Shown here one piece after another: positions 960-19,053 of a DNA stretch of 40,614 bases. The position numbers were made by a program, and so were the translations under genes. The notes under the pieces were generated by a model. That model ran no database searches and was not told where the DNA came from. It worked only from the letters and a program-made list of their open reading frames with translations. Location of the stretch: IMG/VR virus record IMGVR_UViG_3300028830_000010. One strand, written 5' to 3'. Numbering within the stretch: position 1 is the first letter of the stretch; each line of letters begins with the position of its first letter. This DNA comes from a virus.

Positions 960-2363
960 TTACAAATCCTCCCTTGCCGCTCTCATCCGTCGCAAATGCT
1001 CGTTCTTGATCTGGCCGAAATTGAGTGCATGGACGTTTCCGGCCATCATTTTCTCCATTGGGCCGATTTCGCGGCTTTCTGCTTTGGCCCGTCGCCAAGT
1101 AGTCGATACACAGCGCCATGCATCTGCCGCGTGAGAGCAAAAATCATGCAACGGTGACGTGGAAAACACCCGTTTCTCGTCGTCCCACGTCCTGCGGTAG
1201 CCGACGAGGTAATCCCGGCCCTTCTCGGTCGCTTTCCGGTCAAACCAGCACTTCGGAAACGTCGCCCTGGCTGCCTGAATGCCTTCTTCTACATCCAACC
1301 GTGGTGCGATAACGAACCGACCCACATCGCAGTCGATCAACTGCTGCAAAATTGACTTGCCGCCAGCCGCAAGCGTCCTTGGGCGTGCATCGTGAGGTAG
1401 GTAATGCGTGCCGTACTGGTACCCATGCACCTTCGACTTGGATTTGAGCATGTTGGCGTAGTATTCAATGTCTTTTAGGCGGTCATCAAAATAATCTATG
1501 ACCCTGATCTCTGCCCCAATGACCTGATAGAACCATACTGCCGTATCGTCGTCAAAGCCCAAGTCCCATCCGGTGAATACCGGGAAGCCCGGTTCGTGCT
1601 TGACATCTCCGATCCGCCCTTCCGCTTCTGCCTTGACGATGCAATCTGCCCAAATAGCGCCCGGTTGCGCCGCGTCGAAGCTGCAAAAGTATTCCTGCAA
1701 CCACAGCGCCTTGCCGTACTCATCTCCATGTTCTGCCTGCATCTCGCGCAACTCGGACGCCAACTGTTCCGGCGTGAAAATGCCCGTATCCTGTGCCGTG
1801 AGCAACTGGCTGAACCAGCCAGGCTCGGTTTGCGACAGGTCAAAAAGCGCCTTGAAGTGATTCTTCCCCCTCGGCGTGCTGTTGAAACACGCCCACCCGC
1901 CGTTCTCAAGCAGGATAGGCCGCAGGAAGCCCCATGCGCTCGGGTTGCTCAGAGCGTACTCGCTGAACACCAACCCTACTGGCGTAGAACCTACCAATGA
2001 GTCGAAATTGTCGCTACCGACAAGCTGAAACGTGCTTCCGTTCTTCAGCCGTATCCCCATTTCCTGCTGATTCGTGCTATCCCTGATCTCAGGCGGAAAC
2101 GCCTCGTCCAACCTAAGTTTCCCCGTATGCGGATTGATGGCCTGCCAGAGCGCCTTCCGGCACTGGCTGTACTCCGGCATCAAATACCAGATATTCCCCA
2201 CCCTCTCGAACGCCGCACACGCCGAATGGTGCAGCATGACCGCATCCTTGCCACTCCTCCGGTGCCAGCTAACAACCGCACGCTTCCCACCACCAGCCAA
2301 ATAGTCCCATAAAGGCTTCTGATACCCACGCGCCTCCCAATTATGCGGCAGCGTTATCTGCAT
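960..2363 (-). CDS. terL: Terminase large subunit
   Basis: 467 aa with an N-terminal ATPase motif (WHRRSGKD) and a C-terminal nuclease-like half. Sits downstream of the small-subunit candidate and near the portal. Confidence 0.9.
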   Translation of the reverse strand: MQITLPHNWEARGYQKPLWDYLAGGGKRAVVSWHRRSGKDAVMLHHSACAAFERVGNIWYLMPEYSQCRKALWQAINPHTGKLRLDEAFPPEIRDSTNQQEMGIRLKNGSTFQLVGSDNFDSLVGSTPVGLVFSEYALSNPSAWGFLRPILLENGGWACFNSTPRGKNHFKALFDLSQTEPGWFSQLLTAQDTGIFTPEQLASELREMQAEHGDEYGKALWLQEYFCSFDAAQPGAIWADCIVKAEAEGRIGDVKHEPGFPVFTGWDLGFDDDTAVWFYQVIGAEIRVIDYFDDRLKDIEYYANMLKSKSKVHGYQYGTHYLPHDARPRTLAAGGKSILQQLIDCDVGRFVIAPRLDVEEGIQAARATFPKCWFDRKATEKGRDYLVGYRRTWDDEKRVFSTSPLHDFCSHAADAWRCVSTTWRRAKAESREIGPMEKMMAGNVHALNFGQIKNEHLRRMRAAREDL

Positions 2364-2879: not shown

Positions 2880-3353
2880 TTACTCCGGATGCAATAACTT
2901 CCACAATTTGCCACTTTTAATCTTATAAATTGTTTTCGTATGTATATTAAAAGCTTCCGCTATTTCAGACCGCTTCCTATCATCCAATAGAATAGCAACA
3001 ACATCCCACTCGGTTAACTTGCACATAGGATTATTTTCCCCTATATAGCGCGGTGATCTACCCTTTTTTACCATGTCAGCCATGTTGTCTGAATGTGTAC
3101 CCACAAAAAGATGATCTGGGTTTATACAAGCCCTATTGTCACAACTATGGCAAACATACTTTCCTTTCGGGATATCCCCAAACTTTTGAATATATGAAGC
3201 CCTATGAGCCGACATCGTTATTTTCTTATGCTTCAATATCCCATAACCAGCCTTCCCAATACCACCAACCCAAATTACACAACCACATTCAGGTATTGGA
3301 ACCCCATATTTATCAAGTTTTTCAGATATAGACAGCGCAGCTTTTCTCGGCAT
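2880..3353 (-). CDS. HNH homing endonuclease (HNH_3-like) with C-terminal HTH
   Basis: Motif CHSCDNRACINPDHLFVGTHSDNMADM. Visibly AT-richer than its neighbours. RBS AGGAGG lies upstream of the ATG. Confidence 0.85.
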   Translation of the reverse strand: MPRKAALSISEKLDKYGVPIPECGCVIWVGGIGKAGYGILKHKKITMSAHRASYIQKFGDIPKGKYVCHSCDNRACINPDHLFVGTHSDNMADMVKKGRSPRYIGENNPMCKLTEWDVVAILLDDRKRSEIAEAFNIHTKTIYKIKSGKLWKLLHPE

Positions 3354-7528: not shown

Positions 7529-7580
7529 TATCAGATTAGCGTCTCGGATTGGCTTTGATTCTTAAAGTATATTAGCGTTT
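7529..7580. repeat. Inverted repeat A (left copy), 50/52 identical to the reverse complement of 17606-17657
   Basis: Base-by-base alignment gives mismatches only at 7563 and 7566. Contains ACGCTAAT twice. Confidence 0.9.
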
Positions 7581-7600
7581 GCTGCGCCGGTTTACACGAC

Positions 7601-7625
7601 TCAAATAGGGTGTCTACTTCTAGTT
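7601..7625. repeat. Inverted repeat B (left copy), 25/25 reverse complement of 19029-19053
   Basis: TCAAATAGGGTGTCTACTTCTAGTT. The flanking bases on both sides mismatch. Confidence 0.9.
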
Positions 7626-7635
7626 GGCAGGCAAA
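7623..7635 (-). repeat. Terminal YAAC half-site of the left cassette array (TTTGCCTGCCAAC in gene orientation)
   Basis: Perfect 13-bp reverse complement of 9023-9035, which is the GTTGG box upstream of the methyltransferase. Confidence 0.75.
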
Positions 7636-7719
7636 AGCTCAACCTGCACCGCCGTCTCGCCAGCGCCGACTTTTGCGTCCTCGAACAGCCGGGGCTGTGC
7701 GTAGGCTTGCTCTATGCGG

Positions 7720-8289
7720 TTATGGCATGTCCGGCCATCTGAAATTGCGCTTACTCTCATTGTCGGAACCGTCAAGGATTTGCAGGTTCGATTCAACGTG
7801 CAACCCGCAAACGATCTTGCTTTGAAGCGGCACGATATGGTCAACGTGCTTGCGGATTCCTGTTTCTTCCTGCTGGCGCATTGCTTCGGCGTAGATTCTG
7901 ATAATTGCGTCCTGATCCGCCCATGATGGAGTAGCGCGCAGTTTCGCGGCCTTCCTTCTTGCATCAACTGCATTCCGCTTCGGTCGGTTCGCTCGCGCCC
8001 ACTCCAAATGCTTTGCAGCGCGACGCTCTTTATTCTTTTCGTTATGCCGCTTCTGTGCTGCTTTGGTGGCCTCCGGGTTAGCCTTTGCCCATTCGATAGC
8101 CCGTTGCTTATTACGTTCCTTGTTTTGCTCGTACCAAGCATGGTTCGCCTCTCTATGGCATTCCTTGCACCAATTAACGTGGCCATCCGCATATCGCTCA
8201 TTCTTGCTGAAACTCGATAGCGGCTTGTCCTGCCGGCACTTCTTGCATGTTTTCATTTGCCCCGAAAAGCGTATTTTGACGATACGCAT
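7720..8289 (-). CDS. HNH endonuclease
   Basis: C-terminal HVDHIVPL...GLHVESNLQIL...DNESK HNH motif, N-terminal CxxC...CxxC, and a K/R/A-rich repeat region. Start is uncertain (8289 or 8256). Overlaps the methyltransferase 3' end. Confidence 0.8.
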   Translation of the reverse strand: MRIVKIRFSGQMKTCKKCRQDKPLSSFSKNERYADGHVNWCKECHREANHAWYEQNKERNKQRAIEWAKANPEATKAAQKRHNEKNKERRAAKHLEWARANRPKRNAVDARRKAAKLRATPSWADQDAIIRIYAEAMRQQEETGIRKHVDHIVPLQSKIVCGLHVESNLQILDGSDNESKRNFRWPDMP

Positions 8290-9010
8290 TATATATTCTT
8301 TCGCACGCGATGTCAAAGTATTTGCGCTCGCGCTCGATGCCGGTGAATGCTTTGCCTTGTTGAACGCAGGCTACGCCAGTAGTCCCAGACCCCATATATG
8401 CGTCAATGCACCCTCTATCAAAAACACAACTTGAAATAATTGGAGAAACCAACCTTATTGGGTATGGGCAAGGGTGGTCGTTATCGCTATCCTTCTCAAT
8501 CCCCGGCGGAATTCTCCAAACAGATAGCATCTTGTTGTTTTCGTTATTCCATTTGTCCGGTTTTCCGAATCCAAACCAATATTCATGCGATGGTGCGTAT
8601 CTTCCGCAGTTCAACGCCATAGACCCACCGCGATCCCAAACAACCTCAGCAAACAGTGGCGCACGATAGAATTGCAGTGGATGTATGCCAAAGCCATCCC
8701 GGTATCTTGTTTTATGGTTGATCCAAACAACAGGGGCAACAGACAAACAAAGATTCAAAAAATCCTGTTGCTGTTCTTGGTATTCAATTTCATCCATCTG
8801 ATCGAAGTAACCGCCTTGTTTGTCCATCCATGCGTTTTTTCCTGTTTTTCTCTCCGCATGTAATCCAGATGGAGAGGCCGAAGGGTTTAGCGTGTTGTAA
8901 GGTGGAGAACAAACAACAGCATCATGCTTCGGCAGCAGCGGCAGCACTTCGCGGCAGTCTCCGTGGTACAGCGTGCAATTCCCGATTGTCACTTTCTCAG
9001 CCATCATCAC
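8198..9010 (-). CDS. DNA methyltransferase, beta-class N4-C/N6-A (SPPY)
   Basis: Motif IV (VVCSPPY) lies near the N-terminus and motif I (DAYMGSGTTG) near the C-terminus. This is the circular permutation typical of the N6_N4_Mtase family. Confidence 0.85.
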   Translation of the reverse strand: MMMAEKVTIGNCTLYHGDCREVLPLLPKHDAVVCSPPYNTLNPSASPSGLHAERKTGKNAWMDKQGGYFDQMDEIEYQEQQQDFLNLCLSVAPVVWINHKTRYRDGFGIHPLQFYRAPLFAEVVWDRGGSMALNCGRYAPSHEYWFGFGKPDKWNNENNKMLSVWRIPPGIEKDSDNDHPCPYPIRLVSPIISSCVFDRGCIDAYMGSGTTGVACVQQGKAFTGIERERKYFDIACERIYNAYRQNTLFGANENMQEVPAGQAAIEFQQE

Positions 9011-9022
9011 TCCGTTTCACCG

Positions 9023-9101
9023 TTTGCCTGCCAACCCGTCGCTCAAGCGGGACGCGCCGCGATAAAGCCGCGTCGCGCCCCTTAGCTATGCGTTAGATTG
9101 C
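9023..9101 (-). repeat. attC-like structured repeat E7
   Basis: Gene orientation: GCAATCTAAC (stop TAG follows), hairpin GGGGCGCGACGCG / CGCGGCGCG-T-CCC, CTT-G-AGC, then GTTGGCAGGCAAA 12 nt before ATG 9010. Confidence 0.75.
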
Positions 9102-9331
9102 TCAACCCACCCATCAGGGCCATACCACCGTCCGCCAGCGTCGTAGTAATCCTCGGTGGTGGTATCTCCAGCGTGCCACGGGCATGCGCTCTTAATGGTT
9201 GTTGTGCCAACTGGCATGGTGCCATCCCATGCAACCTTCCTAGTGCGAGGGCAGCCGGTGTGCGTGCACCGCAATCTAACCATTTTGTCGAGCGGACGGG
9301 AATAAGGCCCGCTCGTTTTCTCAACCGTCAT
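9086..9331 (-). CDS. Hypothetical Cys-rich small protein (81 aa, or 65 aa from ATG 9283)
   Basis: ORF-track ORF. The first 16 codons lie in the loop of repeat E6, so the internal ATG 9283 (ATGGTTAGA) may be the true start. Confidence 0.45.
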   Translation of the reverse strand: MTVEKTSGPYSRPLDKMVRLRCTHTGCPRTRKVAWDGTMPVGTTTIKSACPWHAGDTTTEDYYDAGGRWYGPDGWVEQSNA

Positions 9332-9365
9332 CGCGCCCGCCGCTCACAAAACCGTTAGAAGGCAT
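9271..9365 (-). repeat. attC-like structured repeat E6 (best-paired copy)
   Basis: ATGCCTTCTAAC-GG-TTTTGT-GAGCGG-CGGG, 35-nt loop, CCCG-T-CCGCTC-G-ACAAAA-TG-GTTAGATTGC. Unpaired T and G on the 3' arm. Confidence 0.8.
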
Positions 9366-10219
9366 CAGTCGCCGCAGTAGCACGGTATCGCCTCGTCGTC
9401 ATAGCCGAAAGCATCATCTTGCTCGGCTGCGTTTTGGTGCATTTGCGCGTAGCTCGCCCGGTCGGAACGAAACCGCGCCCCGCTTGGCTTGGAAGCCAAA
9501 GCCAAAGCCAAAGCCTCCATCCTTGCCCACCATACCGCCCGCTCCGGCTTTTGATTTATCAGCGACAGCACCTGCCCCGCTGGTTTCAAAAAGCACAGGT
9601 CACAGTTCCCGGCTAGGGTGCGCCCCTTGTAGGTCGGGAGTTCAAGGCCGAACGGTTGCGCTTCCCAAAACGCTTGGATTGTTTCAACCGTCACCCCATC
9701 ATCGGCCAGCGGCATGCACATCGTTTCCTTCACCGTTTCAGGGCTTGGCCTGGCGCGGATTTTCGCAACCCGCCTTTGCTCGTCGGCGCGTATCCCGACA
9801 AACTGATTCCAGCCGTCGCCCTCACCCCACCCCAAAGACCGCAGGTACTTGTGCATCGTGCGAATCTTCAGTTCCACCGTGCAAAACCTCGTTACCGGGT
9901 TCGGCAAGTAATTCCGCTTGCGTATCGCCGCCTCGAAAGGCTCTCCGTCGCGGCTCGCCGTGGCGTAATCCACCACCGCAAAGCGCGGATCGTCGGCGCG
10001 GAACTCAACCCAAACAATCGGCACGCTCCAATGCGCGCCGCAGTCACGCACAAAGCGCAGCGTGGCTTCCTCTTCCTTGCCGGTGTTGGCGAAGCAAACC
10101 ACAGCATCAGCCGGCAGTCCGCCGTTGCTCTGTAGCACCCGCCAAAGCATGTAGGCGCTCGTTCGCCCTCCACTGAAACTCAGGCATGTTGGCTCTGTAA
10201 TCTTGTATGGGTCGCGCAT
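9365..10219 (-). CDS. PAPS-reductase-family PP-loop enzyme
   Basis: N-terminal PP-loop (LSFSGGRTSAYM), 284 aa, C-terminal CYCGD. The substrate cannot be inferred. Confidence 0.8.
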   Translation of the reverse strand: MRDPYKITEPTCLSFSGGRTSAYMLWRVLQSNGGLPADAVVCFANTGKEEEATLRFVRDCGAHWSVPIVWVEFRADDPRFAVVDYATASRDGEPFEAAIRKRNYLPNPVTRFCTVELKIRTMHKYLRSLGWGEGDGWNQFVGIRADEQRRVAKIRARPSPETVKETMCMPLADDGVTVETIQAFWEAQPFGLELPTYKGRTLAGNCDLCFLKPAGQVLSLINQKPERAVWWARMEALALALASKPSGARFRSDRASYAQMHQNAAEQDDAFGYDDEAIPCYCGD

Positions 10220-10224
10220 CGCGT

Positions 10225-10303
10225 ATGCCTTCTAACAACTCATTCCAGCGGACCGCCCGCGATAGGGCCGCGTGCGGCCCCTGAATTCGGGTCGTTCGGC
10301 GTC
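10225..10303 (-). repeat. attC-like structured repeat E5
   Basis: GACGCCGAAC, hairpin GGGGCCGCACGCG / CGCGGGCGG-T-CC, then GTTAGAAGGCAT 5 nt before ATG 10219. Overlaps the 3' end of ORF 10240-10509. Confidence 0.7.
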
Positions 10304-10509
10304 AAATGGAACATCGCAAAATTCCGCCGTTCCTCGTGATACCTTGCCTGATCTGCGTCTCCCTCCTCGTCGCTCCATGCGGCTCGCTGCTCTTCATGGT
10401 GTGCTGCTATACGTTGCAGTACGTCGCGGAGCGTGTCTCGTGCTCGACATGCGCAGTTTCTGCAATCGCAATCTGGCACTGAATCGTGCGACTCAATCAA
10501 GTCGTCCAT
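10240..10509 (-). CDS. Hypothetical protein (89 aa)
   Basis: ATG 10509 follows GGGAGGCTGACTTT. The track start at 10587 lies inside repeat E4. Confidence 0.45.
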   Translation of the reverse strand: MDDLIESHDSVPDCDCRNCACRARDTLRDVLQRIAAHHEEQRAAWSDEEGDADQARYHEERRNFAMFHLTPNDPNSGAARGPIAGGPLE

Positions 10510-10513
10510 AAAG

Positions 10514-10843
10514 TCAGCCTCCCGAAGACGGCGCAGGCGACGCCGAACCCGGCGTTGCAGGGGAGATGGACGAGCTACGCTCGCCATCCCCCTGACCTTG
10601 CACGTTCGACCCCTTAGCCGCCGTGCCGCCAGCGCCGACTTCCGCCTCGCGTATGTACCGCAGTGCAGTTTCGTGTCTGCTTTCTCCGGGCCACTTGTTG
10701 CCTACCGCCATAATCAGTTCGTCGTATTTCACTCTCTCGGCCTGTGCCACTTCGTTCGCTACCTGTTGCAGCGCCAATAGCAAGCTCCGGCTGTTCGGCA
10801 TACCAAGGTTGGCCATAATCGCCTTGTATCTTTCGTCTGTCAT
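10514..10843 (-). CDS. Hypothetical protein (109 aa). The C-terminal ~30 aa are read-through of repeat E4
   Basis: ATG 10843 follows GGAGAAACGAC. The low-complexity tail (GDGERSSSISPATPGSASPAPSSGG) is encoded by the repeat. Confidence 0.5.
   Translation of the reverse strand: MTDERYKAIMANLGMPNSRSLLLALQQVANEVAQAERVKYDELIMAVGNKWPGESRHETALRYIREAEVGAGGTAAKGSNVQGQGDGERSSSISPATPGSASPAPSSGG
10539..10613 (-). repeat. attC-like structured repeat E4
   Basis: GGGGTCGAAC, hairpin GGGGGATGG-CGAGC / GCTCG-T-CCATC-T-CCCC, then GTTCGGCGTC. Confidence 0.7.
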
Positions 10844-10864
10844 GTCGTTTCTCCGTTGGTGTCC

Positions 10865-10925
10865 GGGGTCGAACCCGGCAGTCCAGCGGACGCCGTACCG
10901 GCGCCGCTGACTTTTGCGTTATGCC
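10865..10925 (-). repeat. attC-like structured repeat E3
   Basis: GGCATAAC (contains the upstream TAA stop), AGCGG-CGCCG / CGGCG-T-CCGCT-G-GAC, then GTTCGACCCC. Confidence 0.7.
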
Positions 10926-11260
10926 TTTGCACCAATCCACTCCGCGAAACTCAGGCCGCAGTCCGCACGCAACCACTCGCGGTATCGGCGCTGGCTTCTG
11001 GTCAGTTTCTTCTCGGGCGGTTTCGCCGGGCTATTCTTCGCCACGAAGTCAATTCCGGCGCGTGTCACGAAAAACACAGGGCTTCCGCCTGACAGTGCGT
11101 TTCCTGCGCGTTCTGTCATCAGTCCTTCTGCAACCAGTTCACGGCACAGTGGGAAGTCATCTGTACCTTCTCCGGTCACGAAGTGGTTCCGGTATTGCCG
11201 GCCCGCGCCGTACTGGTCTAGCCCAAGGCTGTGTTGCAGTATGTGCAGCTTGCTATTCAT
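10919..11260 (-). CDS. Hypothetical protein (113 aa)
   Basis: ATG 11260 follows GGAGAAAAGGAT. No recognised motif. Confidence 0.5.
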   Translation of the reverse strand: MNSKLHILQHSLGLDQYGAGRQYRNHFVTGEGTDDFPLCRELVAEGLMTERAGNALSGGSPVFFVTRAGIDFVAKNSPAKPPEKKLTRSQRRYREWLRADCGLSFAEWIGAKA

Positions 11261-11301
11261 ATCCTTTTCTCCGTTGTTTTCGCCGAGGCATAACCCGTTG
11301 G

Positions 11302-11583
11302 TCAAGCCGACCGTCCGCCTGCGGCGTCCGTCGGCTTACCGCTGGCGTTCGACCCCTTCCGCCCGATTGCCCGTTTCGCGGTTTCGATGTCCACCGCGCG
11401 TGCACCGGGAACGGAGAAGGGAGGCTCCAGGTTGGTCAACGCTAGGTCGCCATCCTTCAGCGCGCGGCCGCGCTTCCGTTCGTCCCACTCGATAACGCGA
11501 GTGCATTTGTAGTGCTTCATGAACTTCTTGCCGTTGGTCGTTTTCCCGGAGCCCGGCGGCCCGTAAATAATCACAATGCCCAT
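11302..11583 (-). CDS. Small P-loop NTPase-like protein (93 aa)
   Basis: MGIVIIYGPPGSGKTT Walker A at the N-terminus. ATG 11583 follows AAGGAGCG. The upstream part of the track ORF is repeat E2. Confidence 0.55.
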   Translation of the reverse strand: MGIVIIYGPPGSGKTTNGKKFMKHYKCTRVIEWDERKRGRALKDGDLALTNLEPPFSVPGARAVDIETAKRAIGRKGSNASGKPTDAAGGRSA

Positions 11584-11584
11584 G

Positions 11585-11983
11585 TCAATTCGCTCCTTCG
11601 GGGGTTGTTGTGCCAGGGGTCGAACCCGGCGTTCGTGTGGGACCGGACGAAGCTGCGCTTCGCCGGCCCCACAACTCTGCGTTAGGTGCCTGCTTCCGTG
11701 CCCACCTGTCACGCCGCAACTTGATCGTTTCCTGTATCAGCGCATATGCGCCGCAGTCATGCGGGGCCAGCGATCCAGCGGCGAGCAGATCGGAGTACAG
11801 GTCGTCGCACAATTCACGCAGCCGCTCAATCTCTCTTGCTGCCGCGTGTTCGCGCTCTGTTTTCAGTCGGCGCGAGTCGAGCAGTTCTGCAATCAGTTCG
11901 TCATGCGGTCGCGCTTGCTTGCATTGCTGCTCTGGCCGTGGTTCTACCGCAGGCCCGGTTTCGTTCTTTTCTTCCATCGTCAT
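11585..11983 (-). CDS. Hypothetical protein. The C-terminal ~35 aa are read-through of repeat E2
   Basis: ATG 11983 or 11977 follows GGAG. The tail PNAELWGRRSAASSGPTRTPGSTPGTTTPEGAN is encoded by the repeat. Confidence 0.5.
   Translation of the reverse strand: MTMEEKNETGPAVEPRPEQQCKQARPHDELIAELLDSRRLKTEREHAAAREIERLRELCDDLYSDLLAAGSLAPHDCGAYALIQETIKLRRDRWARKQAPNAELWGRRSAASSGPTRTPGSTPGTTTPEGAN
11616..11690 (-). repeat. attC-like structured repeat E2
   Basis: GGCACCTAAC, hairpin GGGGCCGG-CGAAGC / GCTTCG-T-CCGG-T-CCC, then GTTCGACCCC. Confidence 0.7.
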
Positions 11984-12008
11984 CTCCAAAAGTCGGCGCT
12001 CGCAATAC

Positions 12009-12081
12009 GGCACCTAACAGTTCATTCAACCCGGACTGGCCGAAAAGCCGGCCAGCCGGTTAATTCAAGCGTTAGCCGTCA
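12009..12081 (-). repeat. attC-like structured repeat E1
   Basis: TGACGGCTAACG, AACCGG-CTGGCCG / CGGCCAG-T-CCGG-G-TT-G-AAT, then GTTAGGTGCC. Confidence 0.75.
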
Positions 12082-12097
12082 TAGCAGCCAATCAGCA

Positions 12098-12274
12098 TTA
12101 CCCCTCATACTTCCCCCAAGCCATCCGATACGATGCAAAGTGTTTCTGCACATGCCTCGGCAGTTTGTCACGCTGTACCCACAGCGATACATTTTGCTGC
12201 GTATAGCCTAGCTCCTGCGCTGCTTTTTTCTGCGTGCCGAAATATCGGACAAGCTGTTTAGGTGTGTAGTTCAT
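12098..12274 (-). CDS. Cro/YdaS-like helix-turn-helix regulator (58 aa)
   Basis: MNYTPKQLVRYFGTQKKAAQELGYTQQNVSLWVQRDKLP is a classic short HTH. It is the first gene of the minus-strand arm, next to divergent promoters. Confidence 0.6.
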   Translation of the reverse strand: MNYTPKQLVRYFGTQKKAAQELGYTQQNVSLWVQRDKLPRHVQKHFASYRMAWGKYEG

Positions 12275-12285
12275 GGCTTCATTAA

Positions 12286-12303
12286 AGCACATATTTTTGT
12301 GCT
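12286..12303. promoter_or_regulatory. Operator-like palindrome AGCACA-N6-TGTGCT
   Basis: Perfect 6-bp arms abutting the -35 hexamer of the rightward promoter, 12 nt upstream of the cro-like ATG. Confidence 0.4.
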
Positions 12304-12331
12304 TGACAAGTATTTTGTTTGCGGCTATGCT
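12303..12331 (+). promoter_or_regulatory. Sigma70-like rightward promoter, TTGACA-17 nt-TATGCT
   Basis: Consensus -35 and a good -10, facing the 12510-17562 plus-strand arm. Confidence 0.5.
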
Positions 12332-12509
12332 TGAACTGTCCGGCGCAATTCTGACCTGCGACTGGATAGCATGTGATAGGCGACGCCACTCTGCTTGTCC
12401 TGAAAAGGCTCCAGTGCAGATTAACATGCCACGACACACCACGGCGCAACCGTGCTTTTGATGTGGGCCGGAGAGCGTAACCGGCGCATACAACTACAGA
12501 AGGACTGTC

Positions 12510-12707
12510 ATGCACTGCCTGATTTTCGAACAGCTAGAGCCGGTTCCAGTCCGCCAGTTTAAACACGGCGAGAAGGATTACACCGAGTACGCCGCTAATT
12601 TCCGCTTCGTGAAGCGGCTGGACAATGTGCGCTGGAAGGGCCTCGCATGGGACGAGGCTAAGAAACTTGTGGCGCATCCTGTGCTGCAATTTATCGGAGA
12701 GGAATGA
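12510..12707 (+). CDS. Hypothetical protein (65 aa)
   Basis: ATG follows GAAGGA. First gene of the rightward arm. Confidence 0.5.
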   Translation: MHCLIFEQLEPVPVRQFKHGEKDYTEYAANFRFVKRLDNVRWKGLAWDEAKKLVAHPVLQFIGEE

Positions 12708-12952
12708 TGGAACTCGAAAGCTTGAACATTACAAGGGTATCGTGGGGCGATAATGCCGGAAAACTGGACGGCAACATCATGTTCAAAAACCCGAAGGGAA
12801 AAGTTCAAATTATTCTGAGTGATTCAGCGGCGCAACGTATCCTAGAGATATGCGCCGAAGGACTTGTCGAAACCGCGAAGACGGTCGCTAACGAATTGAC
12901 AGCCGAGATTATCTCTCACGGCGGGAATTTACTGATGGTGGATAAAGAATGA
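12704..12952 (+). CDS. Hypothetical protein (82 aa)
   Basis: ATGA-coupled to the previous ORF. Confidence 0.5.
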   Translation: MMELESLNITRVSWGDNAGKLDGNIMFKNPKGKVQIILSDSAAQRILEICAEGLVETAKTVANELTAEIISHGGNLLMVDKE

Positions 12953-13020
12953 TGGACGTCGACTACGTAATCCTGTTCTGCATCGTCAGCTTCATGGCTG
13001 GCTATTACCTCGGAGAGTGA
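12949..13020 (+). CDS. Small hydrophobic peptide (23 aa)
   Basis: Hand-translated MMDVDYVILFCIVSFMAGYYLGE. Fills the gap between coupled genes. Confidence 0.2.
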   Translation: MMDVDYVILFCIVSFMAGYYLGE

Positions 13021-13021
13021 A

Positions 13022-13519
13022 ATGAGCTTACCCGCGCTGTACCAGCTTACCCGCGAATATCAAGAGGCATACGAGACTCTGGCTGATATGAATCTGCCGG
13101 AAGAAGTGATGCACGATACGCTCGAAGGATTGCAGGGCGATATCGAGAAGAAGGCCGAGAACGTCGCTTGCGTCATCCGCAACTTCGAGAGCATGGCCGA
13201 GCAGATCAAGCAAGCCGAGAAGCAACTGAAGCAACGCCGTGACGCATACGAACACAGGGCCGAACATATCCGCGCTTACCTGCTGCACAACATGCAGGCT
13301 TGCGGCATCAGCAAGATAGAATCGCCGTGGTTCAAGATTGCCGTGCGCGACAATCCCGAATCGGTGGAGATTACCGGCGCTGTCCCGCCTGAATACATGC
13401 GCCAGCCTGAACCGCCGCCGCCAGCACCTGACAAGGCCATGATTAAGGCCGATCTCAAGGACGGCAAGCAGTTTGACTTTGCGCGGCTTACGCGCACTCA
13501 ACGTGTGGAGATCAAATGA
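13022..13519 (+). CDS. Gp157-family protein (recombination-module accessory)
   Basis: The N-terminal pattern (YQLTREYQEAYETL...LEGLQGDIEKKAENVA) and C-terminal part (FKIAVRDNPESVEI) match the Siphovirus Gp157 family. Sits immediately upstream of ERF. Confidence 0.65.
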   Translation: MSLPALYQLTREYQEAYETLADMNLPEEVMHDTLEGLQGDIEKKAENVACVIRNFESMAEQIKQAEKQLKQRRDAYEHRAEHIRAYLLHNMQACGISKIESPWFKIAVRDNPESVEITGAVPPEYMRQPEPPPPAPDKAMIKADLKDGKQFDFARLTRTQRVEIK

Positions 13520-14214
13520 ACGAGAATCTAGGGGTCTATAAAGCCATTGCAGCAGTAACCGCAGCAATGGCCAAGGAAGGTATCGGCAAGGGCCGGAAGA
13601 ACCAGCAGCAGGGCTATTCCTTCCGAGGCATTGACGACGTGTATAACGTTCTGTCTGGCATGTTGGCAACTGCCGGCCTGTGCATCATCCCTCGCATTCT
13701 GTCCCGCGTGTGTGAGGAACGGACGACGAAAAGCGGCAGCGCGTTGTTCTACGTGACAGTAGAAGCGGAATATGATTTGGTTTCCGCCGAGGATGGAAGC
13801 AAGCATACCGCCAAGGTATTTGGCGAAGCAATGGACAGCGCCGACAAGGCCACAAACAAAGCCATGAGCGCGGCCTACAAATACATGGCGTTCCAAACCT
13901 TCGCCATACCGACAGAGGGCGACAACGACGCCGACTCTGTAACGCATGTTGTTGTACCAGCAGCAAAGGCTCCAACGCCATACGACTACGACGCCGCCCT
14001 AGATGCCATGCGCGCCGCCAAGTCCGAAGCGCAGCTTAAGGCCGCATACGTTCCAGCCGCCAAGCGCGCCAAGACTGACGGCGACGCTGCCATGCTGGAC
14101 GTGCTGACCAAGGTCAAGGATGAGTGTAAGGAGGCGATGGCTGGAAGCATTACTGGCGATCCGAGCGAAGGCGATCTTAACATTCCAGCATTGGGCGGAA
14201 AGGCGGTTATATGA
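13516..14214 (+). CDS. erf: ERF-family single-strand annealing recombinase
   Basis: The NQQQGYSFRGIDDVYNVLSGMLA and KATNKAMSAAYKYMAFQTFAIPTEG blocks are typical of ERF. Confidence 0.85.
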   Translation: MNENLGVYKAIAAVTAAMAKEGIGKGRKNQQQGYSFRGIDDVYNVLSGMLATAGLCIIPRILSRVCEERTTKSGSALFYVTVEAEYDLVSAEDGSKHTAKVFGEAMDSADKATNKAMSAAYKYMAFQTFAIPTEGDNDADSVTHVVVPAAKAPTPYDYDAALDAMRAAKSEAQLKAAYVPAAKRAKTDGDAAMLDVLTKVKDECKEAMAGSITGDPSEGDLNIPALGGKAVI

Positions 14215-14477
14215 GCAAGCACATAATTAATGCAGATTCAGATATTTCTATCCCACACGAATACGCAGGATTAAGAGCGCTATGGGCATCCGTAATGCTC
14301 TTGGCCATAAGTGATGCAAAGGACATGGCGGCGACATGCAAGGCAAACAGGCGTAGCGCAAAATCTTGGATTGAAAGCGATAGGACTGACATCCCAAATG
14401 CGTTCGTGAATATTTACGATTTCTTAAACATTTCTCCGCATCATATTCGTAATTCGATCAAAATGAAGGACAAATAA
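14211..14477 (+). CDS. Hypothetical protein (88 aa), AT-rich
   Basis: ATGA-coupled ORF with noticeably lower GC than its neighbours. Confidence 0.5.
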   Translation: MSKHIINADSDISIPHEYAGLRALWASVMLLAISDAKDMAATCKANRRSAKSWIESDRTDIPNAFVNIYDFLNISPHHIRNSIKMKDK

Positions 14478-14478
14478 C

Positions 14479-14793
14479 ATGCACCCTGAAACCAGACAGC
14501 TACGCGAGGACGAAAACGAGTACCAGCGCGGACTCGATGCCGAGGATGAACGGCAGCGTGCAATCGAAATGGAGATATCGTTTCTGCGCGTGGATATCGC
14601 CGTGAAGAACCAGCATCATCAATTCGTTGAGGATTGGTATGCTGATCCGGCTGGCGATCTTGCCGAGATCATCCGGCAAGCGTGCTTACTTAATCGCGCT
14701 CAGACCGGCGTACTCGGCGGCTGGCTGCATACCGTGGTCGAGAATAGAATCAGGCAGGTTGCCGAGATTACCGTGGATCGGAGGCTGAAATGA
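14479..14793 (+). CDS. Hypothetical protein (104 aa)
   Basis: Packed ORF with no recognised motif. Confidence 0.5.
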   Translation: MHPETRQLREDENEYQRGLDAEDERQRAIEMEISFLRVDIAVKNQHHQFVEDWYADPAGDLAEIIRQACLLNRAQTGVLGGWLHTVVENRIRQVAEITVDRRLK

Positions 14794-14951
14794 ACCGACT
14801 ATATCGTTACTGGCTTATATTCCTTCGCTATGCAAACGCTATCGACCTGCACAGCGCGAAGGCATCCGGCAACCACGACGTAGCTGCGTGGTGCAGACTG
14901 CGGATATCGCAGATTGATAACGATATAGATATACTGCGGATGCAGGGGTGA
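14790..14951 (+). CDS. Small hypothetical ORF (53 aa)
   Basis: Hand-translated. ATGA-coupled. Its TGA stop lies inside the first box of repeat E8. Confidence 0.35.
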   Translation: MNRLYRYWLIFLRYANAIDLHSAKASGNHDVAAWCRLRISQIDNDIDILRMQG

Positions 14952-15014
14952 CGGCTAACGTGGATGTCACCGGGCCGCGCTTGCGCGGCTCCGGTGGACA
15001 GCAGGGTTCGACGG
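14949..15014 (+). repeat. attC-like structured repeat E8
   Basis: TGACGGCTAACG (same 12 nt as E1), CACCGG-GCCGCG / CGCGGC-T-CCGGTG-G-ACA, then GTTCGACGGC. Confidence 0.75.
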
Positions 15015-15045
15015 CACAACCGCCGTCTTCGGGAGACTGACTTTT

Positions 15046-15237
15046 ATGAAAAGCATAGGTACAAGCGAAATATCAGCATGCCCTTTCTGCGGATTTGATG
15101 ATTTCCAGATTGCCGGAACCGCTTCAATGATGTTTTCGATTACCTGCCCAGACTGTGGTTGTATTGGCCCGCAGGCAGGAATTATTACCGATGCCATAGA
15201 ACGATGGAACGACCGGGCTTTGACGCCGAACGATTAG
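15046..15237 (+). CDS. lar: Lar-family restriction alleviation protein
   Basis: CPFCG...CPDCGC...AIERWNDR matches the Lar-family signature. 63 aa. Confidence 0.75.
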   Translation: MKSIGTSEISACPFCGFDDFQIAGTASMMFSITCPDCGCIGPQAGIITDAIERWNDRALTPND

Positions 15238-15296
15238 CTTGAGGGGCTGGACGCGGCTTTATTGCGGCCAGTCCCTCTCCAAGCGCCAGTTGGGCG
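15222..15296 (+). repeat. attC-like structured repeat E9
   Basis: GACGCCGAAC (overlaps the end of lar), GAGGG-CTGG...CCAG-T-CCCTC with loop GACGCGGCTTTATTGCGG (homologous to the E7 loop), then GTTGGGCG. Confidence 0.7.
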
Positions 15297-15310
15297 CGGA
15301 AAGGTTGAAG

Positions 15311-15640
15311 ATGGACTTGTGTGGACATAAAGGGTTTGCTGGGCCGAGTGCGTGCATCCTTGAGGAAGGGCACTACGGAAACCACCAATACGGCGATATT
15401 GCCACGGCCTACGAGGTCGAACTGCGAAAAGACGCGGAGAGATACAGGTTCCTGAGAGAGGCAGCTCATGACGCGGCAAAAATAGAAGCCTTGAATATGG
15501 CGAACAGAGAGCCGCAAACCCCAGCGGAGTTTGATGCAGCAGTGGATATAGCAATGACGACGCCCAACGGACAAGTTGAGGGGGCCGAAGGCTGCTTGCA
15601 GCCGGAGGCTCCCTCTCGAACGCCGGGTTCGGCGGATTGA
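15311..15640 (+). CDS. Hypothetical protein (109 aa). The C-terminal tail is read-through of repeat E10
   Basis: First ATG after repeat E9. The tail ...EGAEGCLQPEAPSRTPGSAD is encoded by the repeat. Confidence 0.45.
   Translation: MDLCGHKGFAGPSACILEEGHYGNHQYGDIATAYEVELRKDAERYRFLREAAHDAAKIEALNMANREPQTPAEFDAAVDIAMTTPNGQVEGAEGCLQPEAPSRTPGSAD
15561..15634 (+). repeat. attC-like structured repeat E10 (most divergent hairpin)
   Basis: CGCCCAAC, GAGGGGGCC..GGCTG / CAGCC..GGCTCCCTC, then GTTCGGCG. Confidence 0.6.
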
Positions 15641-15642
15641 CT

Positions 15643-15915
15643 ATGCCTAAGAACTACGGCGGTGACGATAAATTGACGCGCGGTTTGTTGCTCGGTGCGA
15701 TGCTGGCAAAAGGCGAGGGCGTGACAAGCGCCATGATCCACAGGCGCTTCGGGGTTTCGAGAGCAACTGCTAAGCGCGACATGAACGTGATTGAGGCGAC
15801 GTTGCCTGTTGAAGCGGAAGTGAAGGGCACGAGGGTAACGCTGTCGCTGGTGACGCCGAACGCCCAAGTAACCGGCGCTTCGCCGGCCCTTATGGCGAAG
15901 CGTCCGGTTGACTGA
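15643..15915 (+). CDS. Small winged-helix/HTH DNA-binding protein (90 aa)
   Basis: MIHRRFGVSRATAKRDMNVIE resembles HTH_11/DeoR-type N-terminal domains. The track start at 15637 is TTG. The ORF end lies in repeat E11. Confidence 0.5.
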   Translation: MPKNYGGDDKLTRGLLLGAMLAKGEGVTSAMIHRRFGVSRATAKRDMNVIEATLPVEAEVKGTRVTLSLVTPNAQVTGASPALMAKRPVD

Positions 15916-15931
15916 CGTGTTAGCGGGCATT
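15854..15931 (+). repeat. attC-like structured repeat E11
   Basis: CGCCGAAC, AACCGG-CGCTTCGCC / GGCGAAGCG-T-CCGGTT-G-ACT, then GACGT-GTTAGCGGGCATT. Confidence 0.8.
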
Positions 15932-15946
15932 TTTACGGGAGGCGAT

Positions 15947-16219
15947 ATGAGTGAAACCTACACCCCGGCGAACGGAACCGAAGGCGTTGCATTCTTCGAT
16001 TGCTGGTGCCGGCGCTGCTCCAGGGACAAGGCCATGCGCGAAGGGGCCGACTTCGACGAGTGTGACGACAACGAACTGTGCGAGATCATCGCGGCCAGCT
16101 TCCGCGGGCCGGTGAAGGAATGGATCGAGGACGATTCCGGCCCGCGCTGCACGGCGTTTGTGGAAGCCGGCAACATCGTGCCCGAAGTTGATACGCTGAC
16201 AGGGGACTTGTTCGCATGA
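15947..16219 (+). CDS. Hypothetical Cys-rich protein (90 aa)
   Basis: ATG 15947 follows GGGAGG. Confidence 0.5.
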   Translation: MSETYTPANGTEGVAFFDCWCRRCSRDKAMREGADFDECDDNELCEIIAASFRGPVKEWIEDDSGPRCTAFVEAGNIVPEVDTLTGDLFA

Positions 16220-16953
16220 CGCCGCTTGTCAAAGAGATGGTGTCGCTTGACCCGGAAGTGGCGCTGTCGTGCATCTGGTTCGACCTGGGCACGCTGCCGC
16301 GCTACACGTTCGCATGGAGCGAACTGCCGGGGAACCGTCTGCCATTCGAGAAGTGCGCAATCGTCGGGCGTGACAGCAAGGGCGACAAGTTCTTGGTGTG
16401 GGCTGCGCAGGGCGACGAATCGACGATCCTGCTGTTTGCCTGCGCGATGATGCCCGACCATTGGACGCGGACGCCTGTCTTTGCCGTTGTGATGGCCGAA
16501 GGCGGTTGCCGCATCGGCGACGTGGAAGGCGAAGAAGAAATCACAAAGGACCAGGCCGCGCCGATAGTTGGCGTGTTGGCCGAGTTCCTGAAAGCGGCGA
16601 ACCCGCCCGGCTACCGTGCGACGGAGAAGGCCAACAGCATCACGAACAAGCGCCGCACCGCGAAAGGCAAAGCACCGTTGATCTACGACTGGCATACGGT
16701 CGTTATTGAGCCAGCGAAGCCGAGCGGCGAATGCCTGGGCGGGACGCATGCCAGCCCGAGGCAGCACGAGCGGCGCGGGCACTGGCGGACATGCGCGAAC
16801 GGTAAGCGCGTTTGGGTGCGGAACTGCACGGTGGGCGACGCTTCGCGGGGCACGGTTTTCAAGGACTACAAAGTCGACGACGGCGGGACGGCAATGCCCG
16901 CTAACGCAAAAGTAACCGGCGTGCCGGCATTACCGGCACGTCCGGTTGACTGA
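16216..16953 (+). CDS. Hypothetical protein (245 aa)
   Basis: ATGA-coupled. The C-terminus ...ANAKVTGVPALPARPVD runs through repeat E12. Confidence 0.55.
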   Translation: MTPLVKEMVSLDPEVALSCIWFDLGTLPRYTFAWSELPGNRLPFEKCAIVGRDSKGDKFLVWAAQGDESTILLFACAMMPDHWTRTPVFAVVMAEGGCRIGDVEGEEEITKDQAAPIVGVLAEFLKAANPPGYRATEKANSITNKRRTAKGKAPLIYDWHTVVIEPAKPSGECLGGTHASPRQHERRGHWRTCANGKRVWVRNCTVGDASRGTVFKDYKVDDGGTAMPANAKVTGVPALPARPVD

Positions 16954-16968
16954 CGGGTTAGAGGGCAA
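16893..16968 (+). repeat. attC-like structured repeat E12
   Basis: AATGCCCGCTAAC, AGT-AACCGG-CGTGCCGG / CCGGCACG-T-CCGGTT-G-ACT, then GACGG-GTTAGAGGGCAA. Confidence 0.8.
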
Positions 16969-16977
16969 CTGCACAAC

Positions 16978-17562
16978 ATGGGAAAGTACCAAATTATCTA
17001 CGCCGACCCGCCTTGGGCTTACCAAGGGAATGCGACCGACCAGAAGAACAACAGGGGCGGGGCAGCGGCGCATTACGATGTGATGACCGTGGAAGATATT
17101 GCAGCATTGCCAGTGCGCGAGGTTGCAGCAGACGACAGCCTGCTTTTTATGTGGGGCGCGTGGCCGAAACTGTTTGAAGCGAAGACCGTGATGGACGGTT
17201 GGGGGTTTGAATTTAAGACTTGCGCCTTTGTGTGGGTGAAAACGAACAAGCGCACGAACCCCGACCAAGCCAGCTTTTTCCCTGTTGATAGCTTCGACAG
17301 CTTTTGGGGGATGGGGCGATGGACAAGGGCGAACACGGAATTTTGCCTTTTGGGTACGAGGGGGAAGCCGAAACGGGAAAGCGCGGGGGTGCACCAGATC
17401 ATTTACGCACCGATAGCAGAGCACTCGCGCAAGCCGGACGAAACGCGGGACAGGATTTTGGCCCTAGCTGGTGACGTGCCAAGGGTGGAACTTTTCGCCC
17501 GACGCACGGCACCAGGTTGGGATTTGTGGGGGAACGAGGTGGAGTGTGACCTTGCCCTCTAA
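16978..17562 (+). CDS. MT-A70-family DNA N6-adenine methyltransferase
   Basis: IIYADPPW catalytic motif. 194 aa. Confidence 0.85.
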   Translation: MGKYQIIYADPPWAYQGNATDQKNNRGGAAAHYDVMTVEDIAALPVREVAADDSLLFMWGAWPKLFEAKTVMDGWGFEFKTCAFVWVKTNKRTNPDQASFFPVDSFDSFWGMGRWTRANTEFCLLGTRGKPKRESAGVHQIIYAPIAEHSRKPDETRDRILALAGDVPRVELFARRTAPGWDLWGNEVECDLAL

Positions 17563-17563
17563 C
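17552..17563 (+). repeat. Terminal YAAC half-site of the right cassette array (TTGCCCTCTAAC)
   Basis: Perfect 12-bp reverse complement of 16957-16968. Contains the TAA stop of the MT-A70 gene. Confidence 0.75.
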
Positions 17564-17605
17564 GTGAAATAGGGAGCCTAAAATTCCAGACAAATGGCGC
17601 TCAGT

Positions 17606-17657
17606 AAACGCTAATATACGTTTAGAATCAAAGCCAATCCGAGACGCTAATCTGATA
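17606..17657. repeat. Inverted repeat A' (right copy)
   Basis: 50/52 reverse complement of 7529-7580. Followed within a few nt by an ATG, as on the left side. Confidence 0.9.
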
Positions 17658-18250: not shown

Positions 18251-18441
18251 CAACCGGAATGGAATTGCTAATTAAGAGTGGGGCGACCATTGAAGATATG
18301 ATTGAAGATGCCAAAAAAGAAGGTGCGAACGAACTTCGCAAGACATTCAATTACTGCCCGCGTTGTGGCAAGCCTATGCCACATGAGCATAACTTTGTGC
18401 ATACTTGCACTCCGCCAAATTGGAATAGAAGCGGGTATTAA
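18247..18441 (+). CDS. Hypothetical protein (64 aa) with CxxC...HxC
   Basis: ATGA-coupled ORF. Confidence 0.45.
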   Translation: MTTGMELLIKSGATIEDMIEDAKKEGANELRKTFNYCPRCGKPMPHEHNFVHTCTPPNWNRSGY

Positions 18442-18497
18442 GGTTGTCAATCCAGCGCAGAAAGTTGTCAATCCATAACTGAAAGGTTGTCAATGAA
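18441..18497 (+). repeat. Three direct repeats RGTTGTCAAT at 21-22 bp spacing
   Basis: AGGTTGTCAATCCA (18441), AAGTTGTCAATCCA (18462) and AGGTTGTCAATGAA (18484). The last copy overlaps ATG 18493. Confidence 0.7.
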
Positions 18498-18732
18498 CCA
18501 CAACGATCTGAACCAATGCCGCCTTGACGTTGAGCGGTTGCGGAAGGCGGCGGACAGGATGGTTGAATTGAAAGCCGAGAGGGACTTGGCTATATCCCAT
18601 CTGCGCTTCACGCTGCGCGAAATGCAGCGCATTGCAGACTGGCTGAAGCCGAATCAGGTAGGCATCGAAAACGATGGAATCCGCGCAAGAGCGCTCGACA
18701 CTTTACGCATGATGAAAGGGTGGATGAAATAA
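18493..18732 (+). CDS. Hypothetical protein (79 aa)
   Basis: The track ORF begins at TTG 18487. First ATG is at 18493. Confidence 0.45.
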   Translation: MNHNDLNQCRLDVERLRKAADRMVELKAERDLAISHLRFTLREMQRIADWLKPNQVGIENDGIRARALDTLRMMKGWMK

Positions 18733-19016: not shown

Positions 19017-19028
19017 TGTATGTGGTTT

Positions 19029-19053
19029 AACTAGAAGTAGACACCCTATTTGA
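19029..19053. repeat. Inverted repeat B' (right copy)
   Basis: AACTAGAAGTAGACACCCTATTTGA is the exact reverse complement of 7601-7625. Confidence 0.9.

Follow-up and report, generated by a model that had tools for sequence, protein, structure and literature searches.

We examined IMG/VR virus record IMGVR_UViG_3300028830_000010, a stretch of 40,614 nucleotides that is called the window below. Structured repeats of 60–100 nt separate its accessory genes. We conclude that these repeats are very probably genuine integron attC sites. On this reading, the region from 7.6 to 17.6 kb would comprise two mirror-image platforms that lack an integrase gene and lie on either side of the early regulatory region, and a third platform would be empty. 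Integrons are considered bacterial devices, and according to recent work they stockpile anti-phage defence cassettes. Here, 17.5% of a complete phage genome consists of predicted integron cassettes, 13 in all (eight in the left array and five in the right), docked at sites that match bacterial attI. Cassettes have been gained or lost recently between near-identical phages.

Bases 1–141 of the record are identical to bases 40474–40614. This 141-nt terminal overlap indicates a circularly closed assembly and hence a phage genome of 40,473 bp. Portal, major head, terminase, tail fibre, endolysin and primase genes identify a tailed phage. The best terminase match among cultured phages is only 49% identical. 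Hence, the phage is without a cultured relative or known host. Comparison of the region with 50,697 phage records, using megablast and blastn, returned no useful match. A Logan contig assembled independently (L001) spans both arrays with gene order unchanged, so the arrangement is not an assembly artefact.

A preliminary description of the window listed twelve copies of the repeat, each oriented like the flanking genes. All twelve are present, and we identified a thirteenth at approximately 11280–11356 on the minus strand. For detection, a covariance model was built from two phage copies with the structure annotated by hand (model R1; phage sequence only). With filters off, R1 recovered 13 of 13 copies on the gene-sense strand. 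Every copy scored higher on this strand than on the other (for example, 94 versus 49, 50 versus 10 and 44 versus 9 bits). Over the whole 40 kb, R1 found nothing convincing outside positions 9021–16971. Read in gene sense, each copy begins with YAAC then G, followed by a spacer of about 5 nt, a 3-bp stem, a 6-bp stem and a variable GC-rich hairpin. On the 3' arm there is a bulged T, 6 bp, a bulged G, 3 bp, a second spacer of about 5 nt and GTTNG. The AAC and GTT triplets are invariant in the window copies, and G directly follows AAC in 13 of 13.

Conservation of pairing was assessed in 34 sense copies, taken from this phage and four relatives and placed in a model-guided alignment. The AAC and GTT boxes pair in 34 of 34. 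Unpaired T and G residues, described earlier as conserved on the 3' arm, occur in 12 and 11 of the 13 window copies, respectively; the remaining two window copies have C where the bulged G is expected. Across the family, the figures are 28/34 for T and 29/34 for G. The 3-bp and 6-bp stems are 91–100% paired, with two to four pair types at each position, and the unpaired spacers are 5–6 nt long. Terminal stem pairs alternate between G-C, C-G, A-T and T-A. Hence, as the preliminary description had it, the terminal stems differ in sequence yet stay paired. Standard pairs fill 95.6% of stem cells, a fraction that is biased upwards because the alignment was fitted to the structure of the model, and 15 of 20 stem pairs have changed on both sides. 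When the 3' partners were slid by 1–3 columns, only 28–45% were paired. The three compensatory swaps reported between hairpins 9049–9081 and 10250–10281 are real. Alignment of the copies with MAFFT, followed by RNAalifold, gave no consensus structure since the variable hairpins were misaligned. This approach was replaced by the two-sequence, hand-annotated seed and model-guided alignment.

The repeats closely resemble the attC sites of class 1 integrons, such as those of aadA1 and aadA2. Shared features are an R box (AAC/GTT), a spacer of about 5 nt, an L box of 3 bp and 6 bp with bulged G and T, a variable hairpin, the overall length and complementary boxes in neighbouring copies. The spacing between T and G equals that of the aadA1 attC bottom strand. 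In an alignment of phage CGTCCGGTTGACTGACGGGTTAG with aadA-type CGTCGGCTTGAATGACTTGTTAG, the T and G bulges fall at the same places. The aadA1 attC query (60 nt) matched plasmid R100 with 100% identity over bases 3–60, directly downstream of aadA1 and on the gene strand.

Detection by covariance model works in both directions. Thus, R1 misses none of the class 1 attCs annotated in R100 and pSTM6-275. Scores are 27.7–36 bits for six of them (E values from 3e-8 to 6e-6) and 13.7 bits for the cmlA1 attC (E = 0.05). All of these matches are on the strand opposite the resistance genes. For the reverse search a second model (R2), a stand-in for the attC model of IntegronFinder, was made solely with the bottom strands of seven class 1 attCs. 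R2, a small model whose source attCs are related to one another, recovers 9 of the 13 phage copies with E ≤ 3e-6, and 11 of them with E < 0.05; every one of these matches is on the gene-sense strand. The sole additional match of R2 below an E value of 0.1 is the antisense of a true copy.

An attC cluster without an integron integrase (CALIN) is defined by at least two attC sites with no integrase gene nearby. The window has 13 attC sites and no integrase gene. Two features of a complete canonical integron are absent: an integrase gene, and ORFs (open reading frames) on the top strand. Every structural feature of attC sites that we tested was found. The preliminary description had proposed an integrase-less cluster of integron attC sites in a phage; two-way model detection, covariation, the chain of boxes, presence or absence of whole cassettes and the lack of a recombinase all uphold this proposal.

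The boxes themselves define the cassettes. In an array, what follows the crossover of an attC is already part of the next cassette, and so should be complementary to the inverse core in the attC of that same cassette. We compared the 3' box of each copy with the reverse complement of the 5' box of the next copy, using 32 adjacent pairs from five sequences. The median identical prefix was 10 of 12 nt. It was 3 of 12 for the two boxes of the same copy and 3 of 12 for non-adjacent pairs (Mann–Whitney p = 8e-9 and 8e-16, respectively). The chain also predicts a partner box beyond each outermost copy. For the left array this box, GCCTGCCAAC, was found exactly once, at 7632–7623 (minus strand), by the stop codon of gene 7620–8201. 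For the right array the predicted box, GCCCTCTAAC, was found once besides its own complement, at 17554–17563 (plus strand), where the MT-A70 gene stops. Neither of the lone terminal boxes (7623–7632, 17554–17563) is followed by an attC body.

By the established mechanism, the crossover point is in the 5' AAC of the bulge-bearing strand. Hence, a cassette here would consist of C, the attC body, one or more ORFs and a closing YAA. Arrays that start with a full attC and finish with a lone YAAC box fit crossover at the sense-strand AAC. The canonical boundary, with crossover at the sense-strand GTT and each attC 3' of its ORF, was rejected in view of the lone terminal AAC boxes and of an insert in a relative (L101) in which an attC precedes the ORF.

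The outer ends of the arrays share a core with bacterial integrons. Twenty-five nucleotides of the left end, including the AAC, recur at 19029–19053 (plus strand) and at the right-array end of relative L009. Close variants of the core are found in the right array of the window and in relative L092. We scanned GTDB, using one genome per species, with the query AACKWGAAGTAGACACCCTA. Sixteen loci were identified, mostly in metagenome-assembled genomes (MAGs) of Gallionella, Sideroxydans, Rugosibacter, Burkholderiales, Casimicrobiaceae and other Gammaproteobacteria. Locus L098 encodes an integrase at 999–1970 (minus strand) that scores 500 bits against TIGR02249, "integron integrase" (cut-off 265 bits; IntI1 control 509 bits). 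Its core, at 2099–2118, is 129 nt from the integrase gene, and the first cassette begins at 2117 with the junction ...TTTTAGGGTGTCTACTTCTAG↓TTATGCACC (here and below, arrows mark the crossover or junction). The cassette side has six attCs, with alpha/beta hydrolase and GNAT genes on the top strand. The locus is a canonical integron, and its core occupies precisely the place expected of attI. In the Sideroxydans locus L104, 82 nt separate the core from a gene for an integron integrase (486 bits against TIGR02249). Since the core is between the integrase gene and the first cassette in L098, where the cassette side is assembled, and beside the integrase gene in L104, it marks an attI-like site.

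More precisely, the attI sites of two bacterial MAG integrons (CAZRZH010000048.1, Sideroxydans; JAHJJI010000104.1, Gammaproteobacteria) have the same 20-nt core as the phage, TAGGGTGTCTACTTC(T/A)(A/C)G↓TT. The position relative to the first cassette and the crossover triplet are also alike. In bacteria, the integrase gene follows 82–129 nt past the core. In the phage, by contrast, phage sequence is found there, which at two sites includes a 59-nt block, and similarity ends about 20–25 nt from the crossover. An attI site is placed between the integrase gene and the first cassette, with crossover at G↓TT; L098 shows both sides of this arrangement, and only the cassette side applies to the phage. 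Judged by sequence, the phage appears to carry three attI-type cores, two occupied and one empty. In L098, a second copy of TTTTAGGGTGT lies about 105 nt upstream of the crossover-proximal copy (1986–2008 and 2096–2118), which recalls the direct-repeat integrase-binding sites of attI1.

The 59-nt block was considered as a part of attI and rejected because it is absent from bacterial attI regions. Its two copies, each starting 43 nt past an array end, form an inverted repeat with 93% complementarity and are kept in L009, L092 and L102. A scan for the block returned the same IMG/VR contig and three metagenome contigs only. The block might act as a promoter for the genes that come next, or bind a regulator of them. 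An interpretation of the AAATAGGG motifs as T7-like promoters was dropped, as no phage RNA polymerase was found.

Comparison with relatives indicates that whole cassettes come and go. A near-identical relative is contig JAJVIE010000007.1 (42.5 kb; L101 and L102). Its backbone proteins are 98–100% identical to those of the window, whereas its cassettes differ. In L101, proteins with this level of identity are the Cro-like protein, the products of 65-aa and 82-aa ORFs, Gp157, ERF, a 53-aa ORF, an endonuclease-like protein, a 98-aa ORF and primase. At the third site, empty in the window, L101 has the same flanks and a 321-nt insert. The insert starts right after AAC with an attC body and ends in GGCATAAC. 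Between these, it has a Shine–Dalgarno sequence and an 83-codon ORF, the TAA of which is in the closing box. Relative L090 has a different cassette at the corresponding site (19026–19053 in the window). L092 and L009 have additional arrays, which hold other cassettes and terminate at this core as well. Among IMG/VR loci with ERF homologues, just 2 of 80 have attC-type sites like these. Hence, the elements are confined to a narrow lineage and are not general to ERF phages. A tblastn search of the bacterial loci with window cassette proteins found none in common.

The cassettes have reversed polarity. In the class 1 controls, as in canonical cassettes, it is the bottom strand, opposite the gene, that bears the bulged G and T. 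In the phage, the preliminary description had placed both bases on the 3' arm of the coding strand, and this is confirmed. Pfam and PHROG matches, together with codon usage, put 14 of 14 cassette ORFs on the sense strand. Codon-usage log-odds were positive for all 14 and negative for 10 of 10 long antisense ORFs. Hence, the sense strand corresponds to the canonical bottom strand and cassette polarity is reversed. Canonical cassettes, including the bacterial controls, have a top-strand ORF with an attC at its 3' end; phage units have the attC first. The strand carrying the genes would thus be the strand that folds into the recombinogenic hairpin, with genes antisense relative to bacterial cassettes and transcribed from central early promoters towards attI rather than away from it. 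The arrays had also been described as outward-facing. This is correct for gene direction, but in integron terms the arrays would grow from the outer attI-like sites towards the centre. The reversal may stem from selection for expression from early promoters, from the recombinogenic strand being exposed by transcription as the non-template strand, or from strand position with respect to replication.

Clusters of attC sites have been described in phages since 2023. Qi et al. (Front Microbiol; PMC9892861) reported 17 phage CALINs in 10,705 genomes, virulent phages included, with orphan DNA methylases among the cassettes; the arrays in their figure have 2–3 attC sites. Those phages and the present one both have attC clusters without an integrase, and methylase cassettes. 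Differences here are the 13 cassettes, two mirror arrays with an additional empty site, the attI-like core, reversed polarity and turnover. In the literature searched, including PMC9892861, we found no phage arrays this large, no mirror pairs with an empty site, no attI core shared with bacteria, no systematic bottom-strand coding and no turnover between near-identical phages. Insertion at attG sites (Loot et al., bioRxiv 10.1101/2022.09.11.507474) similarly involves cassette entry into non-integron DNA, an integrase acting in trans and a double-stranded target. However, attG sites have a GWT consensus only, whereas the phage has a core of about 20 nt at three sites, which is also present in bacterial integrons. 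This recurrence is a better fit to an attI-type site than to attG. Another host tyrosine recombinase, XerCD, acts on a folded single strand, attP(+) of the CTX phage. In that case the whole phage genome is integrated at dif, while the present system would move single cassettes within a double-stranded phage genome. Compared with canonical integrons, the phage has transcription towards attI and lacks both an integrase gene and an integrase-associated Pc promoter.

The preliminary description saw no tyrosine recombinase ORF in the window. This holds for the whole circular genome, in which no ORF of at least 90 aa matches a tyrosine or serine recombinase family. We infer that a host integron integrase acts in trans. 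Briefly, each platform would have an attI-like docking site at its outer end, with the core (T/G)(A/T)GAAGTAGACACCCTA beside the crossover triplet AAC. Each cassette would comprise one attC, then one or two ORFs, and end in YAA↓C. During infection, the host integrase would act on the folded attC sense strand and on double-stranded attI-like cores. It would excise units of attC and ORF (attC × attC) and insert them at the attI-like sites of the phage. In this way, related phages would swap accessory genes. Phage attCs are substrates of IntI1 (PMC9892861), and integron integrases insert cassettes outside integrons (bioRxiv 10.1101/2022.09.11.507474). These results make the action of a host integrase plausible. 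Our full proposal is that a phage lineage, probably with Gallionellaceae-like or other Burkholderiales hosts, keeps its own mirror-image integron system without an integrase, with attI-like docks copied from, or shared with, the chromosomal integron of the host and a pool of bottom-strand cassettes shuffled by the host integrase. We consider the chances of this to be evenly balanced.

Several observations weigh against our main interpretation. No integrase was found in the phage or in the examined parts of its relatives. The host is suggested only by the MAG contigs that share the core (Gallionella, Sideroxydans, Rugosibacter and Burkholderiales). Eight bacterial loci carry the core with no attC or integrase gene detected within the 4–8 kb examined. 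Hence, the core is not exclusive to recognisable integrons. Two copies, 15222–15295 and 15559–15641, were missed by R2 and are also weak in R1, and two others score weakly with R2. Covariation must be read with the upward bias given above. Furthermore, several ORFs overrun the proposed cassette boundary into the following attC. The YAAC box had been described as lying at, or overlapping, the upstream stop codon. This is so for some genes, but three ORFs read through a whole copy and each ends beside the following start codon (11585–11977 and 10514–10843, minus strand; 15311–15640, plus strand). Others stop inside the next attC (15643–15915, 16216–16953, 10240–10509 and 11302–11583). If translated, the overrunning ORFs would have C-terminal tails encoded by the neighbouring cassette. 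Finally, the innermost left attC of the window (12004–12080, minus strand) matches its counterpart in L101 (1591–1656, minus strand) exactly as far as GTCCGG in the 3' arm, beyond which the two differ. The break is inside the arm, not at a box, so rearrangements other than the integrase type also occur. The L101 copy looks like a hybrid or truncated attC resulting from rearrangement without box specificity.

The L101 junction, which resembles a deletion without site specificity, also bears on whether the arrays are a passive relic. They could be pieces of a host chromosomal integron, picked up by illegitimate recombination and now inert but tolerated. Temperate Vibrio phages are known to capture host integron fragments (PMC9892861) and the present phage has no integrase. 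We regard this explanation as quite improbable. Gene polarity in the phage is opposite to that of bacterial arrays sharing the attI core (L098 and L103), and annotated cassette genes are of phage type (Lar, orphan methylases and a PAPS-reductase PHROG). A relic would also poorly explain why there are three separate attI-like sites with one left unoccupied, and why genomes with near-identical backbone proteins differ by whole cassettes, with breaks at boxes. Stems and bulges are well kept in the 34 copies. Were the sites instead acted on by a recombinase of the phage itself, it would have to be one that is not recognisable. There are sizeable ORFs without a family (for example 44–868, 7620–8201 and 16216–16953), and the phage encodes the recombination proteins ERF and Gp157. 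Integron integrases, however, read bulged T and G at the canonical spacing together with AAC/GTT triplets, and precisely these features are present. The same core adjoins bona fide integron integrase genes in bacteria, and the family searches above found no candidate. A phage recombinase is thus very improbable.

Extremely unlikely, in our assessment, is a coincidental likeness to attC in hairpins that function primarily as RNA elements of polycistronic early transcripts, such as RNase III or RNase E sites, stabilisers or attenuators. The structured strand is indeed the transcribed sense strand and each hairpin is 16–63 nt upstream of a start codon. Such a function does not explain why boxes form a chain and terminal boxes stand alone, why whole units are precisely present or absent, or why the attI core is shared. 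No copy matched Rfam at gathering thresholds, and a terminator scan found none to be terminator-like on the sense strand, T runs being absent. The hairpins may have a secondary role in RNA. The copies are also short, palindromic, GC-rich and intergenic, as would be selfish repeats spreading between genes in the manner of repetitive extragenic palindromes, bacterial interspersed mosaic elements (REP/BIME) or miniature inverted-repeat transposable elements (MITEs). That origin is barely conceivable. The genome has no Y1 (RAYT-type) transposase, and the one IS200-like gene that we saw belongs to an unrelated bacterial locus. Stem sequences differ almost completely between copies, and matching inverted boxes flank each gene rather than each repeat.

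If a host integrase drives the movement, phages exploit the gene-capture machinery of the host for exchange of accessory genes. There would be a phage-specific cassette pool, which standard integron annotation may assign to the strand opposite the genes. In a bacterial integron, such cassettes would be antisense to the cassette promoter and presumably silent, whereas phage early transcription would read them. The phage would be shuffling genes with possible anti-restriction or counter-defence functions, as a counterpart of bacterial integrons that stockpile defence. The system also offers a direct test of how strand polarity and direction of transcription affect attC folding and recombination.

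Features of the window, in order of position. R1 and R2 are covariance-model scores; chain values are matches between facing boxes of neighbouring copies
Feature	Position	Strand	Details
59-nt phage-specific block, copy 1	7529..7587	-	two ACGCTAAT motifs; starts 43 nt beyond array end
Left array end	7601..7632	-	lone 5' box GCCTGCCAAC, then attI-like core TAGAAGTAGACACCCTATTTGA
Left-array cassette genes (eight cassettes)	7620..11977	-	Pfam/PHROG matches, codon usage
Gene without family assignment	7620-8201	-	in same cassette as N6/N4 methylase
N6/N4 DNA methylase	8198-9007	-	Pfam/PHROG
attC, outermost left array	9021..9101	-	3' box GTTGGCAGGC; R1 50.3 bits; R2 31.6 bits
attC, long variable terminal structure	9266..9363	-	R1 30.1 bits; R2 28 bits
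PAPS-reductase-like gene	9365-10219	-	PHROG, E 3e-48
attC	10222..10303	-	R1 34.3 bits; R2 38.2 bits; chain to next copy 12/12
attC, variant, C for bulged G	10534..10613	-	R1 8.6 bits; R2 15.1 bits; chain 10/12 and 10/12; read through by ORF 10514-10843
attC	10865..10927	-	R1 36.8 bits; R2 30.3 bits; stop TAA of upstream ORF inside ATAAC box; 88% identical attC in a different cassette of L090
attC, absent from preliminary description	11280..11356	-	R1 19.1 bits; R2 33.7 bits, E 5.5e-8; chain 11/12 and 9/12
P-loop fragment	11302-11583	-	Pfam/PHROG
attC, variant, lower stem GTGGGG/TCCCAC	11620..11690	-	R1 14 bits; R2 partial match 17.5 bits; chain to neighbours 10/12 and 11/12
attC, innermost left array	12004..12080	-	5' box GACGGCTAAC, 3' box GTTAGGTGCC; R1 43.7 bits; R2 49.4 bits, E 7e-13; 3' box versus next 5' box 10/12
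Central backbone between arrays	12098..14951	.	Cro-like gene 12098-12274 (-), promoter-like site 12303-12331 (+), Gp157, ERF, 53-aa ORF
Right array start			identity with L101 ends at GACGGCT(A/G)AC box; same box in L101
attC, innermost right array	14950..15020	+	5' box GACGGCTAAC; R1 41.6 bits; R2 29.5 bits
Right-array cassette genes (five cassettes)	15046..17562	+	Pfam matches, codon usage
Lar	15046-15237	+	Pfam
attC, weak variant, C for bulged G	15222..15295	+	R1 9.1 bits; missed by R2; chain to next copy 8/12; 84% identical copy in L092
109-aa ORF, right array	15311-15640	+	
attC, weak variant	15559..15641	+	R1 9.2 bits; missed by R2; chain 8/12 and 8/12; read through by ORF 15311-15640
HTH_11 protein	15643-15915	+	Pfam
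attC	15852..15933	+	R2 50 bits, E 4.5e-13; 3' box GTTAGCGGGCAT versus next 5' box 12/12
DUF8270-like ORF and 245-aa ORF, right array	16216-16953 (245-aa ORF)	+	
attC, outermost right array	16896..16971	+	R2 47.3 bits
MT-A70 methylase	16978-17562	+	Pfam; stop codon from lone 5' box GCCCTCTAAC
Right array end	17554..17585	+	lone 5' box GCCCTCTAAC, then diverged attI-like core GTGAAATAGGGAGCCTAAAA
Right array end, comparison with L101	17559		identity resumes at CTAAC box; 4929 in L101
59-nt phage-specific block, copy 2	17599..17657	+	two ACGCTAAT motifs
Third site, comparison with L101	19014-19053		TGTATGTGGTTTAAC↓TAGAAGTAGACACC; L101 has same flanks and 321-nt insert
Empty attI-like site	19026..19053	+	GGTTTAAC↓TAGAAGTAGACACCCTATTTGA; upstream of primase gene

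Two DNA methylases and a Lar-like gene suggest anti-restriction roles for the cassettes. Together with the PAPS-reductase-like protein and small DNA-binding proteins, and going by family matches, they suggest roles in anti-restriction and host takeover. Two cassettes on opposite arms (10510–10540, minus strand; 15020–15044, plus strand) have a 5' leader in common, CCGTCTTCGGGAG(A/G)CTGACTTT, which lies after the attC and ahead of the start codon. Other cassettes, both here and in L092, have a shorter motif, GACTTTT(G/T), ahead of the ribosome-binding site. Within the N6/N4 methylase gene, at 8288–8316 on the minus strand, there is a perfect sigma-70 consensus (TTGACA, 17 nt, TATAAT) aimed at gene 7620–8201.

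The innermost attCs of the two arrays (12071–12081 and 14949–14959) open with an identical 11-mer, TGACGGCTAAC. Hence, cassette-like inverted ends also enclose the central early segment of 2.9 kb. Such ends around the central segment were not seen in the more distant relative L009. Among the bacterial contigs that have the core only (L094, L096, L097, L099, L100, L105, L108 and L109), several share the motif ACACCTT.C.GAGGTGTA.AAT about 30 nt away. In some of these contigs, the core directly adjoins a gene start on its cassette side.

Elsewhere in the genome, an HNH endonuclease gene (2880–3353, minus strand) and a GIY-YIG endonuclease gene (39470–40144, minus strand) lie amid the packaging and structural genes. 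Their products could be homing endonucleases. Three tandem repeats of 21–22 nt (AAGGTTGTCAATCC...) are found at 18440–18503, just upstream of ORF 18487–18732 and near the primase gene. These resemble iterons and might mark a replication origin.

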